Shown: positions 1,152-27,181 of the stretch, in pieces
Numbering within the stretch: position 1 is the stretch's first letter
Layout of the letters: the number at the start of each line of letters is the position of its first letter
Source of the DNA: a virus
Lineage: Duplodnaviria; Caudoviricetes
Reading direction: 5' to 3' (one strand)
Virus record (IMG/VR): IMGVR_UViG_3300047545_000399
Location: 1-30,766 of that record
DNA length: 30,766 nt
Made by a program: the position numbers and the translations under genes
The notes under the pieces: model-generated
Told to the model about the DNA's origin: nothing
The model's input: the letters and a program-made list of their open reading frames with translations, nothing else
Databases searched by the model: none

Positions 1152-1394
1152 TTATCCCTCGACTACCTTGCCCGCAACGAGTCCACCCAGCAACCCACTT
1201 GAAGCCGCCGCCATTCGCTTGGCCTGCGTTTCCTCTTGGTCTGCTATGGCTTCTAGCTCATTCTTAAGCCTGCGTAGCGTGTATTTGCGCATGTCGTTGT
1301 CAGTATGGCCATTAGCTCTTAAGGTACTAAAGATACGGGTCCAACTATGAGTCGCTCGATCCGGTTGGCCCATGTCGGATGAGCTGCGAAAAAA
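1152..1394 (-). CDS. Tail assembly chaperone, -1 frameshift extension (lambda gpT-like part of G-T fusion)
   Basis: The -1 frame after the slippery site reads FFRSSSDMGQPDRATHSW..., continuous with track ORF 1152..1373. Canonical position before the tape measure gene. Confidence 0.8.
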   Translation of the reverse strand, partial: FFRSSSDMGQPDRATHSWTRIFSTLRANGHTDNDMRKYTLRRLKNELEAIADQEETQAKRMAAASSGLLGGLVAGKVVEG

Positions 1395-1657
1395 TCCGAA
1401 TTGACCTCCATGATCTTCTCAATTAAAGCCAAGAACGCCTTAGCCTTCATCGCTTTAACTTTATCAACTGGCAGATCAGTCAGCTTTGCAATAAAGTCAT
1501 AACCGTCATCGTTAAACCCAAGCGCAACCCAGCTCGTGAAGTTACTTGCTTTGCTAAAGTCCTCGGCCCTGAATTGTTTAATCCCCAGCTTAGTCTTTCC
1601 AAGCTGAATAATCACCGGCTCATCGCTTGCAAAAATGTCGTCTAATTCAGTAATCAT
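1319..1657 (-). CDS. Tail assembly chaperone (lambda gpG-like)
   Basis: ATG at 1657 preceded by AAGGACAAC (SD-like). MITELDDIFASDE...EVNSDFF. Lies between the tail tube and tape measure genes. Confidence 0.8.
   Translation of the reverse strand: MITELDDIFASDEPVIIQLGKTKLGIKQFRAEDFSKASNFTSWVALGFNDDGYDFIAKLTDLPVDKVKAMKAKAFLALIEKIMEVNSDFFAAHPTWANRIERLIVGPVSLVP
1388..1394 (-). promoter_or_regulatory. Programmed -1 ribosomal frameshift site T TTT TTC
   Basis: Minus strand TCG GAT TTT TTC GCA contains an X XXY YYZ heptamer in the correct phase, and the -1 frame is open into 1152..1373. Confidence 0.8.
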
Positions 1658-1665: not shown

Positions 1666-2190
1666 TTAATTGGGTGCAGCAACCCAAGCAGAACCCGTGT
1701 TAAACACTTGCAAAGGCGCATTGCAAAGCGTTACTGTTACGGGCTGGCTTACGGTAGCATTTGTCGAGTCGGTGACGTTCACAGTGTAGGTGTGCTGATC
1801 GCAAACCGCATTGCCGGAACGTCGAATTTTTAGCCCTTGCTTGGGCGAATAAACGCGCCATTTGCAGTTGTTGTAAACCGCATATTGGCCGGTCTTAGAA
1901 TCTATTTGAACTTCGCCTGATGTGCCTTTGTGCGTCGGTGGCATGGGCGCATCCAATGTGTATTGCATTGCTTGGTGATCGCGCCAGATTCTCATATTCA
2001 TGGCTAGTGCCTCAGTGATTTTGCAGCATGGATTACAACCGTCTGAAACCGGTAGATCGGGCATGTCATTCAACCCGCCAAAGATCGGCACGCCAACATC
2101 AGCATCGATCATGCTTAGGGTTATGTTCTGCGAGGCAGTCTGACCACCTGCCGCCGTTGCTATAACTGTGTAGGTATGAGTCGCGGCCAT
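1666..2190 (-). CDS. DUF2793-like virion protein (head-spike base-like) carrying two Ig F-G hairpin-like segments
   Basis: Core ...LAMNMRIWRDHQAMQYTLDAPMPP...YAVYNNCKWRVYSPKQGLKI...VFNTGSAW resembles DUF2793. HTYTVxxT...SQxxTxxL segments lie at the N-terminus and inside the domain. Paralog of 2192..2611. Confidence 0.6.
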   Translation of the reverse strand: MAATHTYTVIATAAGGQTASQNITLSMIDADVGVPIFGGLNDMPDLPVSDGCNPCCKITEALAMNMRIWRDHQAMQYTLDAPMPPTHKGTSGEVQIDSKTGQYAVYNNCKWRVYSPKQGLKIRRSGNAVCDQHTYTVNVTDSTNATVSQPVTVTLCNAPLQVFNTGSAWVAAPN

Positions 2191-2191
2191 G

Positions 2192-2611
2192 TTAAGCCAC
2201 CACCCATGCAGCCCCAGTATTAAGCCATGTAAGACCGGTTGCAGTGCTTACGATTTGCAGTCCTGACTTAGCCGGATAAACCGCCCAAGTGCCGTTGTTA
2301 TAAACAGCATAAGCACCGGTCAAAGAATTGATCTGGCCTTGACCAGGAACACCAGACCCGCTCGGAGGCATTGGCCCATCCGAGCTAAAGCTAAGCCCGA
2401 TGTGATCCTGAATAATTCTTAGGGTCGCGTTCATGCCTTCGGGCATTCCGCAGCAAGTGCCTTCGTCTGCAAAGTCCGATGTGAAGCCGTTAAGCTGCGT
2501 TGAGCCCGAACCCCACGAACCCGGCTGAGACAGCGCTACGGTGATGTTTTGGCTTACTTGCGCGTTATTTGCGTCTGTTACCGTGACGGTATAAGTGTGA
2601 TTGTTTGCCAT
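2192..2611 (-). CDS. DUF2793-like virion protein (head-spike base-like) with N-terminal Ig F-G hairpin-like segment
   Basis: GMNATLRIIQDHIGLSFSSDGPMPPSGSG...YAVYNNGTWAVYPAKSGLQI...WLNTGAAW matches the DUF2793 pattern as I recall it. N-terminus is MANNHTYTVTVTDANNAQVSQNITVAL. Confidence 0.65.
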   Translation of the reverse strand: MANNHTYTVTVTDANNAQVSQNITVALSQPGSWGSGSTQLNGFTSDFADEGTCCGMPEGMNATLRIIQDHIGLSFSSDGPMPPSGSGVPGQGQINSLTGAYAVYNNGTWAVYPAKSGLQIVSTATGLTWLNTGAAWVVA

Positions 2612-3460
2612 TTAGACGCTCGCAACCGCGGGGAATATTTTATAGGCCAACCGCTTCGAGCCGATCTTGACCGATTCAATTTTGCCGGTCATCGGTTGGT
2701 TAAATAGCTCGGTATGGATTAGCGAAAACTGCGCCGGTCTTTGTAATTGAACGCGGTAGAAGATAGCCATAACGCTCAAAGGTTTACCGCAACTGTCTTT
2801 AAGCAAAGACTCACCTTCAAACACTAAAGAAACCGGAGGTAATTTGCTATCAGTTGATTCATGCTCAACCGTTCCCGACGCAAAGTAACTTGCACGCAAA
2901 ACCTGACGGTCTGTTAAAGCGCGGTCACGCATCATTCGTGGGCCTGCAACGGTCATTACGTAATCAACGCCTTCAACTAGGTTAACCGTGGCTAAAGTTT
3001 GAGTATCAAGCGCTTGGACCGTGTAAGGCTTTAACTTGTTGACTGGCGCTTGTGGTAAGGGGATTAGCTCACCCGCGCAAAGGTTTTGAGCGCACGCCGT
3101 AAAGACTTGTTCATTGACTTGCGTCTCTGATCGATCAGCCCCAGCAGTACCAAACGCGCGTTCAAAATTAGACTTGCCAAAGCAATGCAGTGTAAAGCTA
3201 ATGTTGCGTGCGTTTACCCACTCACCCGAGCAACCGTTACCGTCGTTTGTGTAGTCGTTAACCGAACTTGAGGCAATCTCAGTCTGCACATCTAACTGAC
3301 TAACATTGCCTAACGCTTGTTGTGCCGGTAGCTGTACATAATTTGCAGGCAGCACTAAACCCGTTGAACACTGACCGTCGTAGCCAGTGCCATCGGTTTT
3401 TAGTGCAGGGCCAGCATAAACCCGACCCCGCCAAACAATGCAGCAGTTATCTGTTGACAC
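2612..3460 (-). CDS. Second tail tube-like protein (paralog of major tail protein)
   Basis: Likely GTG start at 3460, 1 nt after the upstream stop. Shares motifs with 3462..4271: CC..RGR, LGNVSQL/FGNASDF, DYT/DYQ, GVDY, LVFEG/LAFDG, FYRV/FYRI, SLI/PLI. Confidence 0.75.
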   Translation of the reverse strand: MSTDNCCIVWRGRVYAGPALKTDGTGYDGQCSTGLVLPANYVQLPAQQALGNVSQLDVQTEIASSSVNDYTNDGNGCSGEWVNARNISFTLHCFGKSNFERAFGTAGADRSETQVNEQVFTACAQNLCAGELIPLPQAPVNKLKPYTVQALDTQTLATVNLVEGVDYVMTVAGPRMMRDRALTDRQVLRASYFASGTVEHESTDSKLPPVSLVFEGESLLKDSCGKPLSVMAIFYRVQLQRPAQFSLIHTELFNQPMTGKIESVKIGSKRLAYKIFPAVASV

Positions 3461-3461
3461 A

Positions 3462-4271
3462 TTAGACCAAGGCGAACGTACCGTACTGACTTGCACCCTG
3501 AGCTGTTACGCACAAGTCTTTAAGCACAGTGGCTTCAAAGTTAAACGAGGCTAGGTCATCACTGATTAAAGGAATGCCGCCGTTAGGCTTTGGCTTGATG
3601 CGATAGAACATACCTGAGAATGGCGAACCGTCGACAGCATTGAAGCCGTCAAACGCGAGCACGAACTCTTGGGTTGTTGCGGTCAAAATTTCGACCAAGC
3701 TATAAGCTCCATGCTCATAAGTAGCGGTAAACACTAGACCTAAAGCCGGAATAGTTGGCAAGTTTGGCGCGTTTTGGGTAATCGTGATGCCGTTACCTGA
3801 AACAGTGTAATCAACGCCTAGAACCAAACCAGTTGGAGCGGTAACAATAACGCTGGTTGTGTCGATGTTGGTTACTACGCGGCCCTGTGCGTCCTTGAAC
3901 GGGATGTACTGACCCTTAGCAACGATACGACCGCTAAACGTTGCGGCAGCGCTTGCGGCTTTAGATGCTGAAGTACCTGCATATTGGCGAGCAAAGTTAT
4001 CCGGACCTAAACAGCGACCGGTCAGCGAAATAGTAACGCTGTCAATCTCGGTTACTGAGCAAGAAATACCGCCGGCCGTTTGGTAATCTTTTTGCTCGGT
4101 ATCAGTGACCGTAGCATTGACGGTAAAGTCCGAAGCATTGCCGAAGTCAAGCAAAGGATAAGCGACTGGATCGCCGTTTTCGTCGATGCCGCAGCATGGA
4201 TCATATAAACCAAGTTTAATCTTACCGCGACCGCGAAAGCAGCATTTGTTTGTAGTTACGCAATTAGCCAT
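3462..4271 (-). CDS. Major tail (tube) protein
   Basis: Follows the terminator-like gene with a GGAG SD. Motifs FRGRGKIKLG, FGNASDFTV, LAFDGFNAVDG, FYRIKPKP, LISDDLASFNFEATVLKD are typical of siphovirus tail tubes. Confidence 0.8.
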   Translation of the reverse strand: MANCVTTNKCCFRGRGKIKLGLYDPCCGIDENGDPVAYPLLDFGNASDFTVNATVTDTEQKDYQTAGGISCSVTEIDSVTISLTGRCLGPDNFARQYAGTSASKAASAAATFSGRIVAKGQYIPFKDAQGRVVTNIDTTSVIVTAPTGLVLGVDYTVSGNGITITQNAPNLPTIPALGLVFTATYEHGAYSLVEILTATTQEFVLAFDGFNAVDGSPFSGMFYRIKPKPNGGIPLISDDLASFNFEATVLKDLCVTAQGASQYGTFALV

Positions 4272-4285
4272 TTTTAGGGCTCCTA

Positions 4286-4744
4286 TTAAGTTTGGTAATC
4301 CGAAAGGATCAAGGTCGAAACAGAAAAGCGAACGAGCGCATACGGCTTGTCGGCACTCGTTTCGATTTGTGACCCTAGCGGTGTCACGTTGATTTGCTGG
4401 CAGCTCATTCGAACGCTTGTGAGTGCGTTCATAATTGCGCTGCGCTTAGCAAAAATCTGGTCGTAAAAAGGGGATTGGCAAAAGCCATCTGCACTAATTG
4501 CTTTTTGCTGATTGCCCTTGAAAAGAATGTGCGCGGAAACCAAAAACGACAGACGATAATCGGCGCCTGAATCGCTTTGCTTTGTTTCCATCGTAATGAT
4601 GTTGGCGCAGTCCATTTGCTTAATAGACGGAGGATCAAAACGCTCAAACGCAACGCGATTACTAAGAAACTCAAGGCCCATAAGCGCTTCACGCATTGCG
4701 TTAACAATGTCGAGCTCTGCCTGAATCATCCAGTGCATTACCAT
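4286..4744 (-). CDS. Putative tail terminator/completion protein
   Basis: 152 aa, positioned between the head-tail joining gene and the tail tube gene. Assignment is by synteny only. Confidence 0.55.
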   Translation of the reverse strand: MVMHWMIQAELDIVNAMREALMGLEFLSNRVAFERFDPPSIKQMDCANIITMETKQSDSGADYRLSFLVSAHILFKGNQQKAISADGFCQSPFYDQIFAKRSAIMNALTSVRMSCQQINVTPLGSQIETSADKPYALVRFSVSTLILSDYQT

Positions 4745-5052
4745 GCTGAAACCGCCGGCTCTAGCGACTCAACAATATGCAGCTCATATTCTGTTAGCCC
4801 TGCAATGGAACCTTTGGGAGCATGGACTCGATACTGCGAATCGTTGTGAACGATCTGATCGCCTTGCGAAAGGGTTGCGGCAGTTTTTATAGAGTAAGTA
4901 AACCCCACAAAGTCGGGGGTACGAGTAAATGATTTCTTAAAAACTCCGCAAGACTGGTAGGCGCTGCCGTGGCATGGCGAAATGATGATTTGCTCACCAA
5001 AGACAGAGCCCAAAGACTGATTCAAGAGGCGATTGATTTCTTTACGAAACAC
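4738..5052 (-). CDS. Head-tail joining (stopper) protein, lambda FII-like
   Basis: 104 aa. VFGEQIII...QGDQIVHNDSQYRV...GLTEYEL resembles FII-like proteins, and the synteny fits. Confidence 0.6.
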   Translation of the reverse strand: MFRKEINRLLNQSLGSVFGEQIIISPCHGSAYQSCGVFKKSFTRTPDFVGFTYSIKTAATLSQGDQIVHNDSQYRVHAPKGSIAGLTEYELHIVESLEPAVSAW

Positions 5053-5401
5053 TGATGCGCCCTTGACGTAATACGATTGGATTACCCGCAGTAGTGCTTG
5101 CGGTAATCTTGTAGTTGTAGCGCAGCAAACCGTTGCCCATAGCCGTGGTTTGCGTTGCTGTTAGGTCAAAGCAAACCTTGGCCGGTACGCCCGCCGTATA
5201 AGTGCCGACAATCTCAATCGGGCCATTGATCGGGCAGCCGCAGTTACCCAAAATGTCATCGATAACTAGCTTGGGATTTACTAACGGACTAGGCCACTGG
5301 CAACCCGTGGAGTCAAAGCAAATAGCCATGTTATCGGCTTCAAGGTATGAGCTACCTTGCTTGATGCAAAACACCTGCTGATCGCATCCGCAGCACTTCA
5401 T
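5042..5401 (-). CDS. Small beta-sandwich virion protein (BppU-N-like fibre/adaptor), Cys-rich
   Basis: IKQGSS...CFDLTATQTTAMGNGLLRYNYKITA...LRQGRISVS resembles common phage beta-sandwich adaptor proteins. 9 Cys in 119 aa by hand count, beginning MKCCGC. Confidence 0.5.
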   Translation of the reverse strand: MKCCGCDQQVFCIKQGSSYLEADNMAICFDSTGCQWPSPLVNPKLVIDDILGNCGCPINGPIEIVGTYTAGVPAKVCFDLTATQTTAMGNGLLRYNYKITASTTAGNPIVLRQGRISVS

Positions 5402-5673
5402 GGCGTCTCGCCTTTGACCTTTTGGCCTTCTTTGTATTCTTCGATTTGTGCCTTTTGTGCGATGCGTACTATTGCACCCATGAAGACAACTAAAGCAGCA
5501 GCCATTACGCCAAGACCGACAAAGCCAAAGAAGCTATAAGCCAGCGCTAGGAGCATGACAAAGAACACACGGTAAAACCCGCAGAACGCGCAGCCATTAC
5601 CAAGCCAATAGACGAACTTGACCGCCGGTAACGATTCGTCGCCGCCGTTGAATAGGTATTCTTTGACGGTCAT
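5398..5673 (-). CDS. Small membrane protein with CxxCxxxR motif (DsbB-like motif)
   Basis: GCAFCGFYR is followed by a long hydrophobic stretch (about two TM helices) and a charged C-terminal tail. Confidence 0.6.
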   Translation of the reverse strand: MTVKEYLFNGGDESLPAVKFVYWLGNGCAFCGFYRVFFVMLLALAYSFFGFVGLGVMAAALVVFMGAIVRIAQKAQIEEYKEGQKVKGETP

Positions 5674-5843
5674 TAGTGCAAAACGACCGGATAAACAGCC
5701 GCGCCGCGCAGTACCAATGCAAACCAGACAGCATCTAGGGTTTGCTCAAGCTGGGCGTCGGTCATTGACTCAACGTCGATAGGCGCACAGCTACCACCGC
5801 CGCGTTTTCCGCAGGCTTCTAAAACATTTTGATTGTCGAACAT
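5673..5843 (-). CDS. 56-aa hypothetical protein with C-x7-C Gly-rich loop (not in ORF track)
   Basis: Hand translation: MFDNQNVLEACGKRGGGSCAPIDVESMTDAQLEQTLDAVWFALVLRGAAVYPVVLH*. The TAA overlaps the next ATG (TAATG), and it is the first ORF after the 20-bp motif. Confidence 0.7.
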   Translation of the reverse strand: MFDNQNVLEACGKRGGGSCAPIDVESMTDAQLEQTLDAVWFALVLRGAAVYPVVLH

Positions 5844-5873
5844 AGCAAGAACTTTGAAAAGTTAACTTGCCTC

Positions 5874-5919
5874 AAAATAGTCAAAACACGCTTATGTTTC
5901 TAGGGTGAAAAACCTACCT
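5874..5919 (-). promoter_or_regulatory. Conserved 20-bp motif (copy 1) plus -10-like TATTTT; putative late promoter
   Basis: AGGTAGGTTTTTCACCCTAG at 5900..5919 (minus strand), then 20 nt, then TATTTT. Confidence 0.7.
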
Positions 5920-6288
5920 CTACTTGCCACGCTGAAAGTGCGGGCCATCGACTATTCGCTTCCAGTCACCGCCCCAAACATTTTCGGGGTCGAGTGACTT
6001 CCAATACTCGCCCATTGGTCTGATTTCTTCGGCAGTGCAAAGTTTCCCGTCCTTGAACACGTTGAAGTCAATCGCTAGCCTCTCAATGTGCTTGCTGTTC
6101 ATCGTTAATGATCGGCCTGCATTAAAATGCAATCGTTGCTGTTCTACTGTTCTTGCGGCTTCCCCAAATGTCAGTACGTAGCCGTTTTGGAACGCCCAAA
6201 TAATGAGGTATGCCGTGTGCACAACGAATCTTGCTTGATCGCTTACCCGCTTGGTGTACGGGTCAAAGTTGATCGGGTTAGCCATCAC
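5920..6288 (-). CDS. Endolysin, M15-family metallopeptidase
   Basis: RTVEQQRL, SKHIERLAIDF (SxHxxxxAxD), WGGDW and DGPHFQ are Peptidase M15 motifs. Confidence 0.9.
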   Translation of the reverse strand: MMANPINFDPYTKRVSDQARFVVHTAYLIIWAFQNGYVLTFGEAARTVEQQRLHFNAGRSLTMNSKHIERLAIDFNVFKDGKLCTAEEIRPMGEYWKSLDPENVWGGDWKRIVDGPHFQRGK

Positions 6289-6817
6289 GCCGGCCCATCA
6301 TTTCCGTTACCTTAGCGATAACATCGTCCTTGCCCTTGCTCGAGCTGGTCGAGCCGAAGTAAAACCCAAGCACCAAAGTCATTAAGCCAACAACAGCCGT
6401 GCGAACGTCAGCCTCTTTGGTTATGTATAGAATAATCATGCCTGTGCTGATAACAAAAATTGCCAACATTGCAGCGATGTTTTTAGTTAGCCAGGATGCG
6501 TGAACCGACTCATTAACGCGAGTGTTCATATCACGCGCCGATGCTCGATCTTGCATGGCAATCTTATCGCGTTCGATACTTTGCTTTTCAGCTTCAAGCG
6601 TATAGCTTAAAAGATATTCCTCGTGTTTAGTCTGTAGCTCAAGTAACCTGTACCGGCCCTCCTCGGTCTGCATTGTTTTTTCAATGTCAACGCCAAGCTT
6701 TTCTTCAATAACTTGCTTGCCTTTAGCCTTGATCGCAGAAGACAAAAGACCTAAGCCGGATTCAGCTAGGTCTTTTAGTAGTGGTATCGCGATTGCCGCT
6801 ACCAGTGGCGCTACCAC
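6278..6817 (-). CDS. Putative holin (3TM-holin-like)
   Basis: Amphipathic N-terminus, coiled segment with DRASAR, two TM segments ending in GFYFGSTSSSKGKD. Directly upstream of the endolysin. Confidence 0.7.
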   Translation of the reverse strand: MVAPLVAAIAIPLLKDLAESGLGLLSSAIKAKGKQVIEEKLGVDIEKTMQTEEGRYRLLELQTKHEEYLLSYTLEAEKQSIERDKIAMQDRASARDMNTRVNESVHASWLTKNIAAMLAIFVISTGMIILYITKEADVRTAVVGLMTLVLGFYFGSTSSSKGKDDVIAKVTEMMGRRDG

Positions 6818-7167
6818 TAAGACTCATCCTTCGCCTGAATACCATCGGCTAAAACAACGTGACGCTCGATGAGCATTTTCGTGATCGTGTCGTAGGCTGT
6901 CTTTACTTCATTGTACTGAGCCCGCATAACGTCAAGCTCCACCCGCATAAACTCAAGGTCTTTTTTTAGTTTTTCAGTCTCAGACTTTGGGTCGCCAACT
7001 AGGTTAGGGATTGCGGCACTGCCAGCGCCAACTAAAACACCTATGACAGTAATAATAAGTTCTTTGTTAGATGGCGGAACGGGTATAAAAGTTAGATACG
7101 CTACAAGCGCAATCAATACCAATACCAAAAAACCGGATGCTAAAAACTTGCGCGTATCGTTACCCAT
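6817..7167 (-). CDS. Membrane protein with two TM segments and coiled coil (holin/antiholin-like)
   Basis: Two hydrophobic segments followed by a heptad-like C-terminus, within the lysis cassette. Confidence 0.55.
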   Translation of the reverse strand: MGNDTRKFLASGFLVLVLIALVAYLTFIPVPPSNKELIITVIGVLVGAGSAAIPNLVGDPKSETEKLKKDLEFMRVELDVMRAQYNEVKTAYDTITKMLIERHVVLADGIQAKDES

Positions 7168-7176
7168 TCACTACTC

Positions 7177-7512
7177 CTACTTGATGGCTTTTGTCGAAGC
7201 CGCTGATTTCTTAGCCTTGTTCGCCTTACGATTTTCGCGGTCAGCTTTACGTGCGTCTCGACGTGCCTTGCGTATTGCAGGCGGGTCAATGCCTAGCGCT
7301 AGACTCAGAGCCTTCTCGGATACGCCTAGCTTTTTAAACGCAGCAAATACTTCGTCTAGTGCAGTATCCGACTCTAGCTCTTGTGCATCAATAGTACCGT
7401 CGTCGTTAAAGTCCATCTCAGCAAAAACCTCCGCTACTACCGGAGGCAACTCCGCTAACTTGATAGGCTCACCAAAAGGTGTTTCGTATTTGATTGGTTT
7501 GAGTTCGCTCAC
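7177..7512 (-). CDS. Hypothetical protein with EF-hand-like loop and basic C-terminal tail
   Basis: GTG start with AAGGA SD. Contains DFNDDGTIDAQEL and a Lys/Arg-rich tail. Confidence 0.7.
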   Translation of the reverse strand: MSELKPIKYETPFGEPIKLAELPPVVAEVFAEMDFNDDGTIDAQELESDTALDEVFAAFKKLGVSEKALSLALGIDPPAIRKARRDARKADRENRKANKAKKSAASTKAIK

Positions 7513-7521
7513 GATTCGTCC

Positions 7522-10494
7522 TTATGCGTGTGGCAAGATTAACGGGCCAAGTGATAGCCACTGTGGGATACCGGCTGCTTGCGCTCCACCGTTAGGGCCA
7601 AGTGTGGCGTAATCATTTATGGTATCGCCAGAACCGCCGAATACTTGGACTGCGACGCCTGTCTGTCCGTTAATCGTCTGATTGACAAAACGCATTTGAA
7701 CGGGGATAGGCTGCGCATCTGCACTTGTAGACCGTTGCATCTGGCCCATATAGATCGGCTGACCGCGAACTTGAACGCCGTTAAGGAATGCAACCGTCTG
7801 CGTGCCTACGATATTCCCATTGAGCGTAATCAGCCCTTCAACTTCAATCTGACCGCGAGGATCGCTTTCTACTGTGTTATAGCGATAGAACGCCGTGAAT
7901 GGCGCAGCATAAGGGCCAACAACACCGGCCACCGCAGGTAAGGCGGCAGTCATGCCCGGAGCGGTTTGCCCCGCCACGGTTACCAACCGCCAATCGCCAG
8001 AGCCTTGAGCGTGATCGTTCTGGACACGCAAAGCTGGGGTTGCGGAAGCGAGCGCAATACCGGGCTGTGTAATTGTGCCATCAGCCCATGCAACTCTTGC
8101 TTTACCGTCGCCGGTACTGATATTAGCGCCCCTTGAGCCGTTGTAATGCGCAACGCGGACAGCACCAGTTGGCACAGTAAAATTTCCGCCTTGGTAGTTG
8201 GTGATAACGAAATCGCCAGCGACGGAACCCGTTCCGGATATATATGCGGGCGGGATAAACCATAGCGTATCCCATACGCCGAGCGGAATATAGGGCCTAC
8301 CTGAGATTCCTTGTACGACACGAGTAAGCGCAACAGCGCCGTTCGTCAAGGCAACTGGGATCGCGGTACCAATAGCGGGAGGGTTAATGTACAGATACTG
8401 AGCGCCCCATGATGCGTACATATCTGAGATGCCGTACATCATTTGGTTGGCGTCCCACGACACCATTACACCATCCGGGAAACCAATCAATCCATTAGCC
8501 CCAGCTCCTGCAAAAATGCCGCCATGAGACCAGCGAGTGTATTTCAAACCTGTGTGAGTAACACCCATTCGGCGATGTAGGCGGTCTAAGTCGCCATCAG
8601 CCTTGCCCATCCAGATAGCATCACCCGCACGCAGACTACGCTGTACGCCGCCAACCAAAACTTGGGTTGTTGCGTTAGCTCCGGTCAGTTGATAGCTCAT
8701 CACAGGCAGCCAATTTACTGGGATAACTACACTGCCTGCATATCCTGCAACATACCATGACCCTGCGTTAACGCCGCCGGTATCGCTAGCTGCATAGTAC
8801 AAAGTCTCGTTGTCGTTTAACTGCACAACAGTAGAAGTCGCCGTAATCGGAAAGGTACCACGCTGCGCACCACCAAACTTAACAATCGCATCAGCCGCCG
8901 TAACAGTTTCCCATGTACGATTAGCTGCACCATTGACACCAATGACCACTGTACCTGCCGCACGACCAGCTTGGTTTACATCGACAAAACCATTTGCATT
9001 GATGTATGAACGTTGGCCACCATCAATCCATCGAATGCTTCCGGTAAAGCCAACGCGCTGGGGCGTAGATGTTGCAAACGTAGCGTAGAAATAACCCTCG
9101 CCCTGAGCACGGTTCTTCATTGCTGTCCACAAAGCTGCGGTTACATCTGTACCGCCGCCGAACTGTCCACCCAAGCCAAGAACATCTTTAGTTCCCCAGT
9201 AGAACATATTGTTGTCATCGCGGCTAACAATTCTAATCCACTCGCCGGGGTGGGTTCCGGGGTAACTCGTATTATTCAACAGGCTTGGGGTTGCGCCCAC
9301 AGCCGAAGATGTATACGGCGTGATTAAAAAATTACCCGCAATTGTGGCAAGTCCAGTGCCGCGTGTTGCGCGATACCAAAGAGTCTCCCATGCATTTAGC
9401 AAAATACCGCCTGTAGCCGCAACCTGACCTACTGTAGCTGCAACGACTGTCCGAGTACCGCCGCCTTGAACTGGAACAGTAGCCCCGACCGCTGGCATAA
9501 TAATGTCATGATAACCATTCGGCTCTTGAATTGTAACTCCCGCCGTCATCGTAATTAAACGACTCGTCCAAGCAACCTCACCCGCCAACGATACGCGAGC
9601 CTGACCATTCATCTGCAACAAGTCTTGCAAGTTGAACTCGGTCTGAACCTGAGCCTCGTACTGCCACGGCCCCCATGTAGTTGCGCTTGTGCCTGTACGA
9701 TAAATCTTACGGCCATCATCAAGCGTCACGCGCTGGAATACTTGGCCGCCGGAAAAGTCAGCCGCATTTGAATAACGACGCTGAGTCTCTAAAAGAACAT
9801 AGGTCTGCAAGCCCGGAAACTGCGTAGCCGTTAAGCCAATCGCCGTTGCGGTCTTGAATGTATAACTATCGCCCGCCGCATAATCTTGCGGGTTAGGATT
9901 GGTCGCACGCAGATCGGGCACTGACACGCCATTTGCTAGACGCACTTTACCCAATAGGTCTACGCCGATTGCAGTCATGTTGGTGTCAGTTACGCCACCA
10001 TCACCCGCTGTTAATTGAACTGAATTACGCGAACGAAGGTCGTCTAGGGTTAGGCCGGAGTCACCGTTTACGCCGGTGTCTACAACAGTTTGACCCGAAC
10101 GAAAAATCGCGTCTTGGGTATCTGTGGCGCCGTCTGGGGTTAAGCCAGTCAGCGAACCAGACCTCCAAAAATCTGCCGCTGATTCTTGTGGAACCGATGG
10201 GCTGTGCCAAGTATTATCTTCCGCACCCCAAATCAACTCAACATACTGACCGGCCTTGACCGAGTTCGCGTACATTGTGAATGTGTTCGTCCCCGTATTG
10301 GTAATAATAACAGCTAAACCGGATCGAGTATCTGTGGGGTTAGGTAGAGTGAACGATAGGTTAGCCGCCGACGCATTAACGCCGATGTTACTAACAATAT
10401 CTACCGTGGCCACCGCTGTACCGACCACGCCACTTGCAGCAAGGGGGGCTAGGTTTACGCGCTCACGAAGTAGTGCCGAGTTTATCTCTGCCAT
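7522..10494 (-). CDS. Long fibre / receptor-binding protein
   Basis: 990 aa, rich in G/T/A/V. Has a pyocin-knob-like segment (DLRATNPNPQDY...GGQVFQ...IYRTGTSATTWGPW), three divergent internal repeats (ETLWY/ETLYY/DTLWF) and an RBP-head-like C-terminus. Confidence 0.7.
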   Translation of the reverse strand: MAEINSALLRERVNLAPLAASGVVGTAVATVDIVSNIGVNASAANLSFTLPNPTDTRSGLAVIITNTGTNTFTMYANSVKAGQYVELIWGAEDNTWHSPSVPQESAADFWRSGSLTGLTPDGATDTQDAIFRSGQTVVDTGVNGDSGLTLDDLRSRNSVQLTAGDGGVTDTNMTAIGVDLLGKVRLANGVSVPDLRATNPNPQDYAAGDSYTFKTATAIGLTATQFPGLQTYVLLETQRRYSNAADFSGGQVFQRVTLDDGRKIYRTGTSATTWGPWQYEAQVQTEFNLQDLLQMNGQARVSLAGEVAWTSRLITMTAGVTIQEPNGYHDIIMPAVGATVPVQGGGTRTVVAATVGQVAATGGILLNAWETLWYRATRGTGLATIAGNFLITPYTSSAVGATPSLLNNTSYPGTHPGEWIRIVSRDDNNMFYWGTKDVLGLGGQFGGGTDVTAALWTAMKNRAQGEGYFYATFATSTPQRVGFTGSIRWIDGGQRSYINANGFVDVNQAGRAAGTVVIGVNGAANRTWETVTAADAIVKFGGAQRGTFPITATSTVVQLNDNETLYYAASDTGGVNAGSWYVAGYAGSVVIPVNWLPVMSYQLTGANATTQVLVGGVQRSLRAGDAIWMGKADGDLDRLHRRMGVTHTGLKYTRWSHGGIFAGAGANGLIGFPDGVMVSWDANQMMYGISDMYASWGAQYLYINPPAIGTAIPVALTNGAVALTRVVQGISGRPYIPLGVWDTLWFIPPAYISGTGSVAGDFVITNYQGGNFTVPTGAVRVAHYNGSRGANISTGDGKARVAWADGTITQPGIALASATPALRVQNDHAQGSGDWRLVTVAGQTAPGMTAALPAVAGVVGPYAAPFTAFYRYNTVESDPRGQIEVEGLITLNGNIVGTQTVAFLNGVQVRGQPIYMGQMQRSTSADAQPIPVQMRFVNQTINGQTGVAVQVFGGSGDTINDYATLGPNGGAQAAGIPQWLSLGPLILPHA

Positions 10495-10495
10495 G

Positions 10496-10744
10496 TTATA
10501 CGTCCACTGAAATTCGTGCGCTGGCTACAGCCACTGGCACAAACAAAACAAAAGAATTGGTTGACTCTGAAATTACGCGAGCCGTAATAATTGCGCCGTT
10601 GGAGTTGTTGCGAACTTCGACCTGTCGAGGCGCAAACCCCGCATTGTCAGTTATCGTATTGTTTCCCGCAACAAGGGGCTGAACCAGACGAATGACATCT
10701 GGGTTCTGTATTTGTACGGACATTGCACCTACGGTAGCTGACAT
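10496..10744 (-). CDS. Small beta-rich virion-associated protein
   Basis: 82 aa with an AAAGGGG SD. N-terminus MSATVGAM resembles the upstream gene. Confidence 0.65.
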   Translation of the reverse strand: MSATVGAMSVQIQNPDVIRLVQPLVAGNNTITDNAGFAPRQVEVRNNSNGAIITARVISESTNSFVLFVPVAVASARISVDV

Positions 10745-10757
10745 TTCTTATCCCTTT

Positions 10758-10786
10758 AATAAGCGCCCACCATTGCTAGTGAGCGC
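10758..10786 (-). terminator. Possible weak intrinsic terminator
   Basis: Minus-strand RNA GCGCUCAC-UAGCAAUG-GUGGGCGC-UUAUU: 8-bp stem with one G-U pair and a short U-rich tail, in an intergenic gap. Confidence 0.4.
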
Positions 10787-10805
10787 CATTCTAAATCACA
10801 ACCTA

Positions 10806-11252
10806 TTAAGCCGTACCAAAGTTGATAGCAACATGACCTGCAAACGTGCTCGCTGCTGCGGCCAAGGTCGAAGCCTCAACAACACCTGCCGCGCTTGGAA
10901 CCGCTACGGCAATAACAGAAACACTGTCAATCGCGTTGATCGCGCCAGTCGCGTTATCGGCATCACCACCAACATCAGACGAATCGTAAGTGTAAGTGCC
11001 GAATGGAGGCACAAGGAACACGCGGGTAGCTGCAGAACCTAGCGAATTTATACCGCCGCTAAACGTGATGGTTCCACGAACCCAGTTTTGTGAAGCATTA
11101 AACGCAGTCAAAGACTGTTGCGGTTGTGCTGGATTATGCACACCGGCTACTGCGGCTGCGCCGGCTGCGATAGTTTGGATGGTACTTTCGTGTTCCTTAG
11201 TTAAATCCGGCTGGACTGGAACTGCGCCCATTGCGCCATTAGTTGCACTCAT
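10806..11252 (-). CDS. Hypothetical virion protein (148 aa, jelly-roll-like)
   Basis: ATG at 11252 with a TAGGA SD, after the upstream stop at 11269. Starts MSATNGAM. Confidence 0.7.
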   Translation of the reverse strand: MSATNGAMGAVPVQPDLTKEHESTIQTIAAGAAAVAGVHNPAQPQQSLTAFNASQNWVRGTITFSGGINSLGSAATRVFLVPPFGTYTYDSSDVGGDADNATGAINAIDSVSVIAVAVPSAAGVVEASTLAAAASTFAGHVAINFGTA

Positions 11253-11268
11253 ATTTATTCCTATAAAG

Positions 11269-12327
11269 TTAAGGTATATACAGAGCGGTGATTCGTTGCT
11301 CACCGCTGCCTGCATCAAGTGAAAGCGCAGAAGCGCCTAAATAATCCCAAGCGTCAGAGCCGGTGATTGCCGACCACGACCACGTTTCGCCAGTCGATAG
11401 CGGTACGCCTGAACCTGAATCGCCGCTAACCGATCCAGTACCGGCGATTTGCTTGACCGTTACCGATTGGATTTTGTTAGTGCCCACAGCAGATTCAATG
11501 TCAGCCATAGATACAACACCGCCATTGCGCTCTAGGTAAATCAATACTTTGCGCTCAGGCACAACCGCCGGGCAATCGCCCAGCACAAACCCAGCAGGTG
11601 CAGCAGCCGATACAACACCAGCGCTATCTACCCAATCAACTAGCTCTGACTCAAGCGCACCAGTCTCAGCATCAAATCGTGCTGTCTCGCGCATGTAATA
11701 CGACACACCCGCTGCGCATCCTAAAACGGCAGTGCGAGTAACATTAACTTGTGCGGTAACAGAGGTAAGGTCGGTTGGCAAAGTACCTGTAAACGGAGTG
11801 CCGTCTAGGTTCTCATAGCGCAATGTCCATACGCCGGTGTCCTCGCTGTATTCACGAATGCGGAATAAGCCAAGCTCACTGGACGCTGAATAAAGTTTAG
11901 TCTCGCTGAACTCGATCTTAAGAGGTGGGAGCGGATCGCAAAACTTTACGTTCTGTACAAAGTCTGGGTGTGGGACCGTTTGAACTGCTTGTGATGCAAT
12001 AGCAGGCTGCAAAGAACCATCGCAAACCATGCCCTGAACTGGCAGTGGCGCGGGGATAGTTTTGTTTTCTTTAATCGCAGCAACTACATCGGCCAAGCTA
12101 TTTGGCGGGCTTACTTCTTCGATAGTCCCTGTTAAAGCTGTAGTGCAATCTTGACTGTCAAAATACGAGACTGTCTTTACACCAGCAGCGCTTGTAACTG
12201 TTTGGCGAAATGCAAGTTTCTTGTCGCAACAGTCCTCTTTAATCCAAACGCAAGCAAGCGCAGTACCAGCCACAAAGCTAGGCGCAGCGCTACCGGCAGT
12301 TTGAGGCTCGCAGTTAGTACACTTCAT
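11269..12327 (-). CDS. Cys-rich fibre/decoration-like virion protein
   Basis: 352 aa, starts MKCTNCEPQ. N-terminal region resembles 19318..21825. First gene after motif copy 2. Confidence 0.6.
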   Translation of the reverse strand: MKCTNCEPQTAGSAAPSFVAGTALACVWIKEDCCDKKLAFRQTVTSAAGVKTVSYFDSQDCTTALTGTIEEVSPPNSLADVVAAIKENKTIPAPLPVQGMVCDGSLQPAIASQAVQTVPHPDFVQNVKFCDPLPPLKIEFSETKLYSASSELGLFRIREYSEDTGVWTLRYENLDGTPFTGTLPTDLTSVTAQVNVTRTAVLGCAAGVSYYMRETARFDAETGALESELVDWVDSAGVVSAAAPAGFVLGDCPAVVPERKVLIYLERNGGVVSMADIESAVGTNKIQSVTVKQIAGTGSVSGDSGSGVPLSTGETWSWSAITGSDAWDYLGASALSLDAGSGEQRITALYIP

Positions 12328-12352
12328 AGGCCCACCAATTTCATTTGCATCA

Positions 12353-12398
12353 TTTTTACCTTTTCCATAATTGAGCCGCTAGGGTGAAAAACCTACCT
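12353..12398 (-). promoter_or_regulatory. Conserved 20-bp motif (copy 2) plus TAAAAA; putative late promoter
   Basis: AGGTAGGTTTTTCACCCTAG at 12379..12398, overlapping the upstream TAG, then 20 nt, then TAAAAAT. Confidence 0.65.
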
Positions 12399-14613
12399 AA
12401 GCCAAACTCGGCGAAACAGTTACTTGGCCCGTGGTTGGGTTAATCGAAATAGCAGGATCATTATTTGCAAGCGAGTAAGTGATAGCACCCTGCCCACCAA
12501 CTGCTTGATGCAAAAAAAAATTGTTCTGCCCATGCGCGCCAGTCCATGCCGCCGCTGTTACAAAGTTGATCGGGTAACCTACTAAAACCGTCAATGGCTT
12601 AACTTGGTTATTCGTTCCAGCGTTGTTCGTTAGGGAAAACGTTAGATTTGTTGTGCCGATAGCAGACACCGGAGCCGTGCCCGATAACGTCCAAACAGTT
12701 TGACCGCCAACGACGCTACTCGTAACAGTGGCCCAGCTAGGGCTCACCGTAACCGCGGTTGGGTTGTTGCTGATCTGCAAGACCTGACTGAATGGGATGC
12801 CAGCTTCAACAGCTATCAGGTTATTAGTGACCTCTGACGGTACGGGCGCAGCGCTTTTGCTTATCGTAAACAGCTTGTTGTCATCGGGGCTTATCCCGTT
12901 AGCAACAACGATTTGCAATGTCGTATTACCAGCAGGCGCAGGCAGTGACGGATGCTGTAAAAGACCGGTAGAGCTAAGCGTAAAGCCTTGCGTCGCGCTT
13001 ACAATAGACCAGACTTTAGGGTCGGTTCCAGTCGCATTTAACTGCACGCTAAACGGCTGCCCTACCTGACCTGTTAATGTCAACGGACTGGTAATAACCG
13101 GCGGCGTCCCAACTAAAACCTTATTGATCGTAAATACTTGATCGACAAATCCGGCTGAATTGCTAAGCCTAAACGTTACCGTTTCCGGCTGAACGTTATT
13201 AGGCGTAACAGTCGGGCTATAAAGGATCGGAGCGCCCGCTTGATTAAAGTCAAGCCATGACGGCAAAGGGCCAACAATAGTCCAAACCAATGGCCCGCTA
13301 CCCGTACCAGTCGGGCTAAAGGTAAACGCCTGACCAATAGCGGCTGTGGTGCTGTTAGCGCTTGTAATCTGCGGGGGTATGACCTGCGCACTCACCGTCA
13401 CCGGTATTGTTGCTAAGACCGCGCTTGTCGGAGTTCGTAGGCTTATTGTTGCCGACCCATCCACGCCAAAGTTAACCGGTATCTGTGCAATGCCGCTGCC
13501 ATCAGTATTAAAACCGCTAAAAACATCAGAGATAGTAACCGCGTTACTGCTGCTCAAAAAGTTAAACCGGTTAATAACAAACTCAGAAAAGTTATCTACA
13601 ACCGTTGCAGATACGTTTTGCACAGGGCCAAAATACGGACTTGTTAATGAGGTTGGGTTAACTGTGATTGAAACTACGTTTGCGATCTTGACCTGCTGAT
13701 CAACCGTAATTGATCCAACAGTGAAACGAAAAACGGTAAACCCGACATAAGCACCGCTTTGCCCATAAGTAAAAACGGCACCGGCAGGCGAGCCACCCGT
13801 GACTGCGGTTAAAGACGCAACCGTTGCTGCCCCTTGCACAACACCGACCGTCACCGTAACGCCGCTCATGATCTGGCCTTGCGTATCGTAAACAATCACT
13901 CGGATTGACCCGTTATCGCTAAACTCAGGGTAAATCTTTAGCGAAGAATTCGGAACGTCAACCGCGATTGATCCGACCACAGAGTTAACAACAATCGGCC
14001 GTACATGGGTTTTGTTTTGGACCGTCTCACGCGCTGTTAAATCCTCGCCAGATCCTGCGCTATTTGCTGTAACACTAAAAGTTATTCGGCCACTCGCATT
14101 TGTGTTGCCACTTACCGGAGCGTTGATTGTAAACAGCGCGTTTGCACCATCATCAAACAACTGGACCGGATGATTAGGACCGTCTACGTTATTGGCTACG
14201 TCATAGACTCGATATTGCAAAGTCCTTGTTTGGCCAACAGAAAACGATACAACGCCTGGTGCAGGCGGGGAACCATCAACCAAGTCAAGAAATATCGTCC
14301 AGTTTGGGGCTAACGAGCTTGCCGATACATTGATCGGGACCGTGACAGACGACGCACCTGACGATCCAAATGTAGCGGTGGTACTGCCTAGACTAAGCAG
14401 CGAAAACGGAATGGCTACTAAGCCATCTATGTCCGTTATGAATGGCCCCGATCCTTTCTGCGCAATCGAAGTATTTGCAGTGCTTACCGTGACGGTAACA
14501 CCGCTAAGTGTAACTCCGTTGTCATCAGTTACGGTGACATAAGCCGTCAGACTGCCGGGGTTTGGATAGGTCCCTGTTAACGGCTGCGGATTTACAAATA
14601 CAAAGTTAGGCAT
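12397..14613 (-). CDS. Multi-Ig-domain protein (Big_1/invasin-like plus He_PIG-like repeats) ending in a truncated Ig domain
   Basis: VTVTDDNGVTLSGVTVTV (Big_1-like) and PPQITSANSTTAAIGQAFTFSPTGTGS / PPVITSPLTLTGQVGQPFSVQLNATG (He_PIG-like). Ends ...INPTTGQVTVSPSLA*. Confidence 0.8.
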   Translation of the reverse strand: MPNFVFVNPQPLTGTYPNPGSLTAYVTVTDDNGVTLSGVTVTVSTANTSIAQKGSGPFITDIDGLVAIPFSLLSLGSTTATFGSSGASSVTVPINVSASSLAPNWTIFLDLVDGSPPAPGVVSFSVGQTRTLQYRVYDVANNVDGPNHPVQLFDDGANALFTINAPVSGNTNASGRITFSVTANSAGSGEDLTARETVQNKTHVRPIVVNSVVGSIAVDVPNSSLKIYPEFSDNGSIRVIVYDTQGQIMSGVTVTVGVVQGAATVASLTAVTGGSPAGAVFTYGQSGAYVGFTVFRFTVGSITVDQQVKIANVVSITVNPTSLTSPYFGPVQNVSATVVDNFSEFVINRFNFLSSSNAVTISDVFSGFNTDGSGIAQIPVNFGVDGSATISLRTPTSAVLATIPVTVSAQVIPPQITSANSTTAAIGQAFTFSPTGTGSGPLVWTIVGPLPSWLDFNQAGAPILYSPTVTPNNVQPETVTFRLSNSAGFVDQVFTINKVLVGTPPVITSPLTLTGQVGQPFSVQLNATGTDPKVWSIVSATQGFTLSSTGLLQHPSLPAPAGNTTLQIVVANGISPDDNKLFTISKSAAPVPSEVTNNLIAVEAGIPFSQVLQISNNPTAVTVSPSWATVTSSVVGGQTVWTLSGTAPVSAIGTTNLTFSLTNNAGTNNQVKPLTVLVGYPINFVTAAAWTGAHGQNNFFLHQAVGGQGAITYSLANNDPAISINPTTGQVTVSPSLA

Positions 14614-14614
14614 A

Positions 14615-16450
14615 TTACGGCAAGCTTGCTGGCAGAGTTACAACGCCAGTTGACGGGTTAATTGTGACCCCTGCATCTTGTCCGCTAATCGACCAGGTAT
14701 AAGGTGGCACCCCTCCAGTTGCTGTGTGCTGGAATGTATTGATCTGAGCGTGAACACCCGACCAATTGTTAGGCGTTGCAATCGCTAAACTTGTTGGCGT
14801 TGCGGCGTTCACTTGCAGGGGCAAAGTACGCACAACTGGTGTGCTCGAGGCTGCATTAGTCATGCTAAAGCTAACCGTTGGGATGGTTCCTGCTGCACTC
14901 GCCGGAGGTGTACCACTTAATACCCAATTCCCCGATACATAAGCAGCACTTAACCAACTTGGCGATGTTACGGTAATTGCCGTTGGCGAACCAATTGTAG
15001 TTAGAACCGCTGAGTACGCTTGACCTTCGGTAGCTGTAGGTAATGGCCCCTGTACATCAGGTGCAACGCTTGCATTGGCGATGGTAAAGGTCAGTGTCTG
15101 AACAATATCAGGTGCGCAACCATTACTGTATGTAGCCGTAGCAGTCGATGTTCCCGCAGTAGCAGCGCTTGTAATACTCGCTGATCGGTTAGCACCAATC
15201 GTTACCCACGCAGGCCCGCTAGTCTTAGTCCACGTTCCCGCTGTGGCTGAGTTCACCACCGGCAGAATTTGTGAACTAAACGCATTGCCGATTCCAGCGG
15301 TACCGCTAAAGCTAGTCGTACCTGCACTTGTCAGAGTAGGCGCAACGCATGGCGCAGCACTAATGGTAAACGTTAGTGTCTGTTGTAGGTTAGGCGCGCA
15401 TCCGTTGTTGTACTCACGGACAGCAGTGTATGTACCTACAGGAGCGGCAGCGCTAATACTTGCAGCACCGTTTGCACCAATCGTAACCCATGATGCGCCA
15501 CTAAACTTTGACCACGTTCCAGAAGGAGTCGCGGGATTAGCAGTCGGCAATACTTGCGAGCCAAAGCTATTAGCTGTGCCGGATACACCGCTGAATGATG
15601 TTGTGCCGACTGTGTTAATTGTTGGCGCAGTGCAAATTACAAGCGTATCAACTCCGCGAATCACAACTTCTCCAAGTTGTATCAGTCCCGCATGACCTGT
15701 GCCTGATTCAACAGAGCCATCGTTTTGGTCAATCAAGAATCTATACTTGGTAAAAACTAAGTTAGTGTTGCCAGTGACTGTATAAAACTTTGTTTGTGTG
15801 CGAGCAGTCCATTGTTGGTTGGTCTGCGTGTCAAGCGTTACCCACGTTGAGCCATTCCAGCCCTGCAAACGCCAATCTTTTGGGTCGCGTCCAAAGTCAT
15901 CGTTAGCGCTAGTTAGTTCATAGCTTGTTGCGTAAGTAGCAACGCCTGAAGCAAGGGCGTACTCAACGACTAAGCCACCGGGATTGGTCACACTTGATGG
16001 GGAGCTAGTGCTTGGAGCTAGGCCAAGCCCTTTGCTTATCAACGATCCATCGAACCAACCGCCGATTTGCTCAACGCCGCTCGGTGTAACAGGCGTGCTC
16101 GTAACCGTACCATTAACCGAAATAATCGGGTCAGGAACGGTTCCGCTAACCGTGATGTTAGTAGTTGTGGATGTTCCTGTGCCATTGCGGTTGCTAACAG
16201 TAACAGTGCTTGTGCGGTTAGTCCCCGGCGTCGCTAGTATCTCCACCGACCAATTACCATCAGCGTCAACCAATGCCGCCTTCTGTGTAGCAAGGCCATT
16301 CTCAACCGTAACGACAGCGCCCGGCGTCCCATTTCCCGAAATAATTAACGGGTAGTTACCGCTGAACGAAGGCGCAACCGTTACAGTCGGCAATACGTTG
16401 TCTCGTGCAACTGGAATTAAAGACGATACAATTAGTTGTACAGTAGCCAT
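14615..16450 (-). CDS. Ig-repeat protein with discoidin/F5-8-like carbohydrate-binding domain, ending in a truncated Ig domain
   Basis: N-terminal Ig domain (ISGNGTPGAVVTV...VDADGNWSV). YELTSANDDFGRDPKDWRLQGWNGSTWVTLDTQTNQ...IQLGEV is discoidin-like. Two tandem 94-aa Ig repeats. Ends ...INPSTGVVTLPASLP*. Confidence 0.8.
   Translation of the reverse strand: MATVQLIVSSLIPVARDNVLPTVTVAPSFSGNYPLIISGNGTPGAVVTVENGLATQKAALVDADGNWSVEILATPGTNRTSTVTVSNRNGTGTSTTTNITVSGTVPDPIISVNGTVTSTPVTPSGVEQIGGWFDGSLISKGLGLAPSTSSPSSVTNPGGLVVEYALASGVATYATSYELTSANDDFGRDPKDWRLQGWNGSTWVTLDTQTNQQWTARTQTKFYTVTGNTNLVFTKYRFLIDQNDGSVESGTGHAGLIQLGEVVIRGVDTLVICTAPTINTVGTTSFSGVSGTANSFGSQVLPTANPATPSGTWSKFSGASWVTIGANGAASISAAAPVGTYTAVREYNNGCAPNLQQTLTFTISAAPCVAPTLTSAGTTSFSGTAGIGNAFSSQILPVVNSATAGTWTKTSGPAWVTIGANRSASITSAATAGTSTATATYSNGCAPDIVQTLTFTIANASVAPDVQGPLPTATEGQAYSAVLTTIGSPTAITVTSPSWLSAAYVSGNWVLSGTPPASAAGTIPTVSFSMTNAASSTPVVRTLPLQVNAATPTSLAIATPNNWSGVHAQINTFQHTATGGVPPYTWSISGQDAGVTINPSTGVVTLPASLP
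15075..15636 (-). repeat. Tandem duplication of a ~94-aa Ig-like unit (282-bp period)
   Basis: CTAPTINTVGTTSFSG...WVTIGAN...NNGCAPNLQQTLTFTI versus CVAPTLTSAGTTSFSG...WVTIGAN...SNGCAPDIVQTLTFTI. Boundaries are approximate. Confidence 0.85.
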
Positions 16451-19038: not shown

Positions 19039-19325
19039 TACTTGCGAACTCCTGCGCCATTATTTTGTTTTTCAGCTTCTTTTTGTACTGCAACTTCTTT
19101 GACGTACTGACGCAACCGCTCTAAAGACTTTGCATTTTGCAAAATCTCGTCTGCAATTTCCTTAGGGGTGCGGTGTTTCCCGCCGACACTTACGACCGTA
19201 TTAACATACATATTAGCGTGTTCATCGGGTGCGCCTTTGTGAGAGAGATCGACTCTTATTACCTTACCGGTAGGCTCATACGTTTTGAAAACGCCATTCC
19301 TAAAACTAAAATCAAGCTTAGACAT
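19038..19325 (-). CDS. Hypothetical protein (possible fibre chaperone)
   Basis: ATG at 19325 is preceded by GGAG (alternative ATG at 19340). Overlaps both neighbours. Confidence 0.6.
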   Translation of the reverse strand: MSKLDFSFRNGVFKTYEPTGKVIRVDLSHKGAPDEHANMYVNTVVSVGGKHRTPKEIADEILQNAKSLERLRQYVKEVAVQKEAEKQNNGAGVRK

Positions 19326-27145: not shown

Positions 27146-27174
27146 TTGACGCGGCCCATAATATTCTATAGACT
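27146..27174 (+). promoter_or_regulatory. Sigma70-type promoter for tnpB (probably leaderless mRNA)
   Basis: TTGACG-N17-TAGACT, with the ATG 7 nt further on and no SD. Confidence 0.6.
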
Positions 27175-27181
27175 GTACAGC

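Follow-up and report, generated by a model that had tools for sequence, protein, structure and literature searches.

The window analysed here, a virus record of 30,766 bases (IMG/VR record IMGVR_UViG_3300047545_000399, Caudoviricetes), is a fragment whose baseplate genes lie outside it. Two large proteins encoded in it, A611 and A738, end in He_PIG-like immunoglobulin (Ig) domains that stop before the last two strands, F and G, while segments resembling the missing F-G hairpin occur in two small DUF2793-like proteins, D139 and D174. It is likely that the hairpins of D139 and D174 complete the truncated domains of A611 and A738 between chains, thereby hanging these large, probably adhesive proteins on the tail. 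As far as the sequences go, the split is complementary and conserved, and the usual long-fibre gene is replaced by two anchor-only genes; the Ig fold made of two chains is predicted by modelling. The split-Ig principle itself was already known, and what is likely new here is a He_PIG domain split before strand F and borne by DUF2793-like anchors.

The two halves were located with a profile of 88 columns, for which 104 other proteins supplied 207 complete He_PIG-like domains, acceptor-type and DUF2793-like proteins having been left out. In the six frames of the window (40,090 residues), seven matches exceed 5 bits: two complete domains of A738, the two terminal domains (the acceptors), and three hairpins (the donors), which are the only hairpin-only matches above this level; beyond them, the window has no orphan hairpin that exceeds 6 bits. 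The acceptors cover columns 2-58 and the donors columns 60-86, so that the halves meet within about two columns (Table 1). An earlier note on this DNA had claimed that A611 and A738 end at the same position without their last two strands and that three F-G-like hairpins lie about 10 kb away, and the profile bears out both statements. A tail profile comprising the last 29 columns gives the hairpins scores of 16.8, 14.9, and 9.1 bits, and none of 1000 shuffles of each donor protein reaches 8 bits (maxima 7.7 and 6.2). Acceptors and donors taken together belong to the He_PIG family (PF05345), with a feature score of 0.96 to He_PIG clusters in addition to the custom profile. The acceptor chain by itself ends at about column 60 of 88 and lacks strands F and G, hence it does not hold a whole He_PIG domain, and neither window acceptor reaches a Pfam He_PIG match alone.

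The truncation is a real and conserved feature of the acceptor proteins, as judged from their sequences. A611 and A738 are alike over their last ~180 amino acids (38% identity, expectation value (E) 2e-17), their stops fall at one and the same position of the motif, and an independent assembly that is 99.9% identical (L001/G001) has both acceptor stops. Readthrough, which the earlier note had already discounted, cannot supply the strands, since the next stops follow after 2 and 5 codons. Completion by the acceptor protein's own N-terminus was also considered and rejected: no spare hairpin was found among the tail-profile matches above 3 bits in six acceptor proteins, because every such match follows its own A-E strands. 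An acceptor profile applied to 154 proteins gave 370 domain matches that scored at least 15 bits and reached column 55; 359 of them run on for more than 20 residues, 3 for 9-20 residues, and 8 end at the same column. These 8 are exactly the matches above 90 bits, the next best scoring 41.9.

Of the 8 acceptors, three were seeds of the profile, four others are copies of these seeds at 93-98% identity, and the last (P0067) is 76% identical to A738, so that only three acceptor lineages are represented, 40-64% identical to each other. The acceptor of A611 is 64% identical to those of P0018 and P0063, whereas the upstream parts give no BLAST match, which indicates that the acceptor is a portable part and that the cargo varies; the start of P0063 is CBM96-like, near the cut-off. 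In seven aligned rows, 17 acceptor columns are invariant. As regards Ig domains cross-linked by isopeptide or ester bonds (the tag-catcher type), which use a reactive residue pair and a catalytic acid in the core, no invariant Lys occurs in acceptors or hairpins. Acceptors carry Trp, His, Asn, and His at columns 10, 14, 18, and 22, residues seen there in 0, 1, 3, and 0 of the 207 complete domains, and a donor His at column 63 occurs in 10 of 11 hairpins versus 2 of the 207, counts that are inflated by shared ancestry within each half. The deviation of both halves at core positions would fit a co-adapted interface.

The hairpins are retained in anchors 35-77% identical to D139. Their arrangement varies: D139, P0002, P0156, P0164, and P0158 have one N-terminal hairpin, P0003 has two in tandem, and D174 and P0155 have one at the N-terminus and one in a loop. 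A Cys-Cys pair is common to all hairpin-bearing anchors, and hairpins away from the terminus have two more Cys flanking them, which may form a disulfide or metal staple. P0158 (492 amino acids) contains a hairpin, an anchor, its own fibre of 350 residues, and an S74 chaperone in one chain, and has the look of a form midway between the ordinary DUF2793-like fibre and the bare anchor.

With regard to the anchors, the name DUF2793-like given in the earlier note holds by structure and fails by sequence score. The Pfam cut-off of DUF2793 (PF10983) is 27 bits, while D139 scores 19.4 and D174 has no match; hairpin-less relatives likewise stay below it, at 16-20 bits at best. The label rests on structure look-alikes: residues ~34-139 of D139 align with five DUF2793 clusters at template modelling (TM) scores of 0.49-0.58 between predicted models, one of them high enough for naming. 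This alignment begins at residue 34/35 and leaves the hairpin out. D139 ends with the anchor domain and D174 within a few residues after it, and neither has a fused C-terminal receptor-binding part. The D139 model is itself of low confidence (predicted local distance difference test (pLDDT) 51) and gives no Foldseek match at E 0.001.

An anchor profile search of 1.84 billion representatives returned 354 matches, and the best 150 of them, 147 being new, were taken. The anchor core is present in 48 of these 147 relatives, 4 with a hairpin and 44 without, the best tail-profile score among the latter being 0.7 bits. The hairpin-bearing and hairpin-less groups are homologous over residues 50-139 of D139 (probability 99.6%). 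That the hairpins are not integral to the DUF2793 fold agrees with 44 of 48 relatives among the best 150 of 354 lacking them; by these alignments, the hairpins are add-ons outside the DUF2793-like fold, the third being inserted in a loop of it.

The genomic slot of these genes also counts in favour of the joint. Aligned sequences of 14 hairpin-less proteins, out of the 44, served to fetch a control set of 17 viral loci (L002-L018). In all 17, the DUF2793-like gene comes immediately after a tube gene and a tube paralogue (in L006, the first tube gene was found by tblastn only), and the slot gene is one long open reading frame of 561-1088 amino acids in all 16 scored loci (L017 being unscored). 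This cassette is also that of the window, where the DUF2793-like slot is filled by two anchor-only genes bearing hairpins. The slot gene of L002 is annotated as a tail fibre and is followed by the tape measure gene, and an esterase-like domain was seen in 2 of 8 control fibres scanned. Two cultured phages with a single tube gene have no DUF2793-like gene before the tape measure gene, which suggests that tube paralogue and anchor travel together. The control cassette lies at about 8300-13000 of L002-L018, many of which are proviruses of 36-38 kb. In L017, the DUF2793-like gene (~10001) matches only query residues 4-63 without a scored open reading frame and may be broken.

A complex prediction of acceptor 1 with residues 1-34 of D139, a test that the earlier note had proposed, gives 0.54 against 0.01 for the best control, a weak pass. 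Of the solved pairs, 116 of 157 attained this mark, as did 2 of 215 mismatched ones, but only 18 of the solved pairs, along with both mismatches, did so at or below 0.60. The runs agree in at least 96% of contacts, the partner pLDDT is at least 74, and the acceptor pLDDT is 75-76 with the donor versus 44-48 with unrelated chains. A single-sequence AlphaFold run of A611 residues 363-611 was uninformative (mean pLDDT 41), with the acceptor at ~28-36 and the complete upstream domain also at 26-42. Sequence searches of the PDB gave generic Ig matches only.

In Ig domains, the end of strand E, the start of strand F, and the end of strand G lie at the same pole. It follows that the cargo chain would point away from the anchor and that a hairpin inserted in a loop would be usable as a socket. 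In the arrangement that we favour, D139 and D174 would assemble on the tail, presumably as trimers by analogy with the solved DUF2793-family fibres of RcGTA and R4C. They would probably be mounted on a ring of the tube paralogue, a mount less certain than the joint itself. The F-G hairpins presented by the anchors would complete the terminal domain of A611 or A738 in a putatively non-covalent joint, the acceptor acting as a portable module fused to differing cargo. The cargo domain of A611 we take to be discoidin/CBM32-like. In an unlikely extension of this scheme, D139 and D174 trimers on the tube-paralogue ring would be multi-socket hubs offering 3 and 6 hairpins, respectively, into which any acceptor-ended protein could plug, the acceptor His, Asn, and Trp and the donor His forming a buried polar or metal lock that excludes ordinary Ig repeats. 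If so, adhesins would occur in mixture on each virion, and relatives infecting the same cell could exchange cargo as protein without genetic exchange.

The proposal of the earlier note that the fold is completed in trans draws on the conserved truncation, the position of the hairpins outside the anchor fold, the lack of a spare hairpin, and the weak complex pass. Several points weigh against it. Collections of viral, metagenome, genome, and phage sequences yielded no further contig on which the two halves stand together. Searches with D139 and anchor alignments confirmed none of 17, 66, and 116 pattern matches in viral contigs (the Cys-Cys subfamily pattern was not searched), none of 110 in metagenome contigs, and none of 67 in genome contigs. 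With the acceptor alignment, viral contigs yielded only the 99.9% copy, itself without the anchor region, and the tube protein gave 0 of 34. The acceptor motif pattern gave none in metagenome and genome contigs, which says little, as JGI proteins with the motif exist. Among GenBank phages, neither D139 nor the A611 end nor a hairpin-less anchor had a match. Related sequence over both anchor genes (one contig being 87% identical across the two) and the A738 end is present in runs from two other studies; they are not counted as linkage because the anchor and A738-end sequences lie on separate short contigs. No RNA run was listed among the sequencing runs.

To these points should be added that the 8 acceptors reduce to three lineages, which limits the conservation case, and that the complex pass is weak, the halves of split domains tending to pass through likeness to solved Ig folds. 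No acceptor was found in the 17 control records (0 of 8 near-complete ones), while the positive control G001 has one; as these phages are distant, this absence is weak evidence. The control phages also represent one subfamily, and the one record with scanned head genes differs from the window in head families, which is again weak evidence. Finally, the acceptor genes stand among head-proximal genes, 10-12 kb from those of the anchors, and the 30.8-kb fragment lacks the baseplate genes, so that other partners may exist.

The place of the joint is a separate question from the joint itself. Solved DUF2793-family fibres bind the baseplate hub and not a tube ring, those of R4C and RcGTA attaching at the fibre-binding domain of the megatron according to the passages cited (PMC10276861, PMC7296036), and the low-confidence D139 model has, as its top Foldseek rows, chains from the baseplate-tail complex of R4C (E 0.61). 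Supposing that the joint is real, it is possible, though on the unlikely side, that the anchors sit on this hub, which would alter only the place and not the mechanism. Against it stand the two tube genes before the DUF2793-like gene in all control loci and in the window, the two single-tube cultured phages without such a gene before the tape measure, and the mounting of side fibres via the tube paralogue p140 in T5, as stated in part of the T5 report (10.1101/2022.09.20.507954).

It is doubtful that the two halves serve different partners, with the acceptor self-associating or binding a head or neck protein and the hairpins binding a protein encoded outside the window or each other. The closeness of the acceptor genes to capsid genes, the incomplete genome, and the missing second contig speak for this; however, the halves meet within about two profile columns, no other orphan hairpin above 6 bits exists in the window, and the acceptor pLDDT is higher with the donor than with unrelated chains. 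Functionless relics of a broken or shuffled Ig gene are very improbable: phage Ig modules are mobile, and some run contigs share internal A611 repeats and end their match or diverge before the acceptor, yet the stop column is retained across lineages only 40-64% identical, the hairpins persist in divergent anchors, and 17 acceptor columns are invariant in the aligned rows. Hardly credible at all is the joining of the halves into one chain by DNA rearrangement, splicing, or readthrough; the donor does take up at nearly the very column at which the acceptor breaks off, but readthrough ends within 2-5 codons, donor 3 cannot be a chain continuation because it lies inside a loop, DNA words shared by acceptor ends and donor starts are at background (6-9 bases against a mean of 7 and a maximum of 10), and no joint between the two places appeared among 15 of the 22 joints in four DNA runs. 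Recombination sites at acceptor ends and donor starts were likewise rejected, no shared word exceeding background.

The proposed completion of the acceptors by the anchor hairpins has a parallel in Lactococcus phage Tuc2009, although the earlier note knew of no such arrangement in phages. According to the parts of the crystallographic report cited here, a 25-residue hairpin of BppU completes the sheet of the last BppA domain in a titin-like composite (PMC4742702). There, a hairpin of ~25 residues on a virion anchor completes a C-terminal beta-sandwich of ~57 residues in a separately encoded, carbohydrate-binding accessory protein, as is proposed for the window. In Pfam terms, the Tuc2009 joint is a split Fn3 domain, with BppU 300-319 covering fn3 positions 2-21 and BppA 239-279 covering positions 42-82. 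The Tuc2009 anchor donates the first strands from its C-terminus, whereas the window anchors would donate the last strands from an N-terminus or a loop; the former has one adjacent pair, and the latter two acceptors and three donors 10-12 kb apart. No sequence similarity was found between the Tuc2009 joint and the window halves (best 1.3 bits). As far as sequence comparison can tell, the window joint would work like that of Tuc2009 but is not a member of its kind, with another domain family and the opposite polarity.

Pili of the chaperone-usher type also contain an Ig fold that lacks its C-terminal end and is completed by the N-terminal extension of another chain. In that system, a single strand (G) is donated with the help of a chaperone, in contrast to the two-strand hairpin without a polymer proposed here, and no chaperone or usher families were found among the 30 window open reading frames scanned. 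A further case of strand complementation is A1002, in which two virion proteins, gp39 and gp42, rebuild one fold (in the passages cited, PMC13730344); that fold is a split beta-propeller of the nozzle with a structural role, whereas the window joint would be a cargo socket. In T5, the duplicated tube gene product p140 forms a ring carrying the side fibres together with the collar protein p132, and the passages cited present a separate Ig collar protein and describe no split domain (10.1101/2022.09.20.507954).

The DUF2793 domain is described, in the excerpts available, as part of the RcGTA tail fibre Rcc00171 (PMC5026251, PMC8265664) and as an N-terminal attachment domain with variable C-termini (10.1101/150227), while the RcGTA head-spike base is a jelly-roll (PMC7296036). 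The attribution of DUF2793 to the RcGTA head-spike base or fibre in the earlier note is not supported by these passages. A role of D139 and D174 like that of the RcGTA head spike (Rcc01079/Rcc01080) was rejected on account of their resemblance to DUF2793 tail-fibre anchors, their position in the tail cassette, and the jelly-roll of the RcGTA base. Such anchors (Rcc00171 of RcGTA, the R4C fibre, and DMS3 gp49/JBD26 gp59) share with D139 and D174 the anchor fold, by look-alike, and, in the portions cited, serve virion attachment of variable receptor-binding parts. The known DUF2793 domains in these portions are N-terminal with a fused variable C-terminal binding domain, one report placing the gene after a central fibre gene, whereas the window proteins end at the anchor, have added hairpins, and follow a tube paralogue. 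Passages of other reports were used for comparison (PMC10883770, PMC11445458, 10.64898/2026.04.10.717836, PMC9692632, PMC10218006), and no description of a tube/paralogue/DUF2793-like cassette was found in the literature examined for this purpose. No report of a He_PIG split on DUF2793 anchors was found in the open PMC and bioRxiv literature, supplements aside.

If the completion of A611 and A738 by the anchor hairpins is true, it would be the second split-Ig joint of phage tails, having evolved independently of the solved case and with a polarity opposite to it, and the route would be visible: a fibre anchor in wide use shed the tip fused to it and acquired hairpins as sockets. 'Truncated' Ig domains at phage gene ends should then not be dismissed as broken. 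An acceptor of ~58 residues and a peptide of ~25 residues would also give protein display, or the re-equipping of phage tails, a natural pair of tag and socket of compact size.

Table 1. Positions of the acceptor, donor, and neighbouring tail features in the window
Feature	Positions	Strand	Remarks
A611, 611 amino acids: Big_6-like start, partial-GH92-mannosidase-like domain, He_PIG-like repeats, acceptor 1 at end	14615..16450	-	
Acceptor 1, He_PIG-like, strands A-E only (~residues 553-611)	14618..14794	-	Columns 2-55 of 88, 50.6 bits, 5 residues before stop
A611 cargo domain, likely carbohydrate-binding	15716..15952	-	7NSN GH92 alpha-mannosidase residues 133-208, E 1e-14; phrog_17517 tail protein
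A738, 738 amino acids: Big_1/He_PIG-like repeats, acceptor 2 at end	12397..14613	-	Orthologue P0067, 70% identity
Acceptor 2 (~residues 682-738)	12400..12570	-	Columns 11-58, 29.3 bits, 2 residues before stop
D139: N-terminal donor hairpin, linker, Cys-Cys, DUF2793-like anchor; without C-terminal fibre	2192..2611	-	
D174: D139 paralogue (40% identity), two donor hairpins; without C-terminal fibre	1666..2190	-	Both hairpins retained in orthologue P0155
Donor hairpin 1 (strands F-G)	2528..2605	-	Columns 61-86; 16.8 bits on tail profile
Donor hairpin 2 (D174 N-terminal)	2113..2187	-	Columns 60-84; 9.1 bits on tail profile
Donor hairpin 3, anchor-loop insertion between Cys130 and Cys156	1723..1803	-	Hairpin match at 1726-1797, columns 62-85; Pfam He_PIG positions 72-94 of 96, E 0.021
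Major tail (tube) protein	3462..4271	-	phrog_807 E 1e-38
Tube paralogue, likely anchor mount	2612..3496	-	phrog_807 E 7e-15; 25% identity to tube protein
Tail assembly chaperone	1319..1657	-	phrog_1442 E 1.4e-4
Tape measure protein, cut by window end	2..1150	-	Several tape-measure PHROGs, best E 3e-15

According to family scans, the window contains the minus-strand virion operon of a lambda-like tailed phage, with genes for terminase, portal, S49 protease, major capsid protein, large accessory proteins, a lysis module, tube genes, a tail chaperone, and the start of the tape measure. A transposase-family gene (27146-28246, + strand; phrog_506, E 1e-72) runs against the operon between the terminase and portal genes. 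An endolysin (Peptidase_M15_4) and two membrane proteins (5920-7167, - strand) are encoded within the virion operon, between the accessory and head-tail genes, and a nearby protein of 111 amino acids (7177-7512, - strand) has an EF-hand-like motif (E 6e-5, under the cut-off) and a basic C-terminus.

Among the accessory proteins, that of 862 amino acids (16450-19038, - strand) has no family match and no acceptor; its C-terminal half reads, in our impression, like a beta-helix. Two others, of 835 and 352 amino acids (19318-21825 and 11269-12327, - strand), have no family match in Pfam and PHROG scans and share a Cys-rich N-terminal region of ~120 amino acids (28% identity, E 0.01-0.02), which may be another attachment module common to both proteins, in this case at the head. 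The 990-amino-acid protein and the middle of A611 are mosaic modules common to other phages. The regions 7000-11500 and 14900-15700 show many divergent contigs, loose ends, and raised summed depth in four of four DNA runs.

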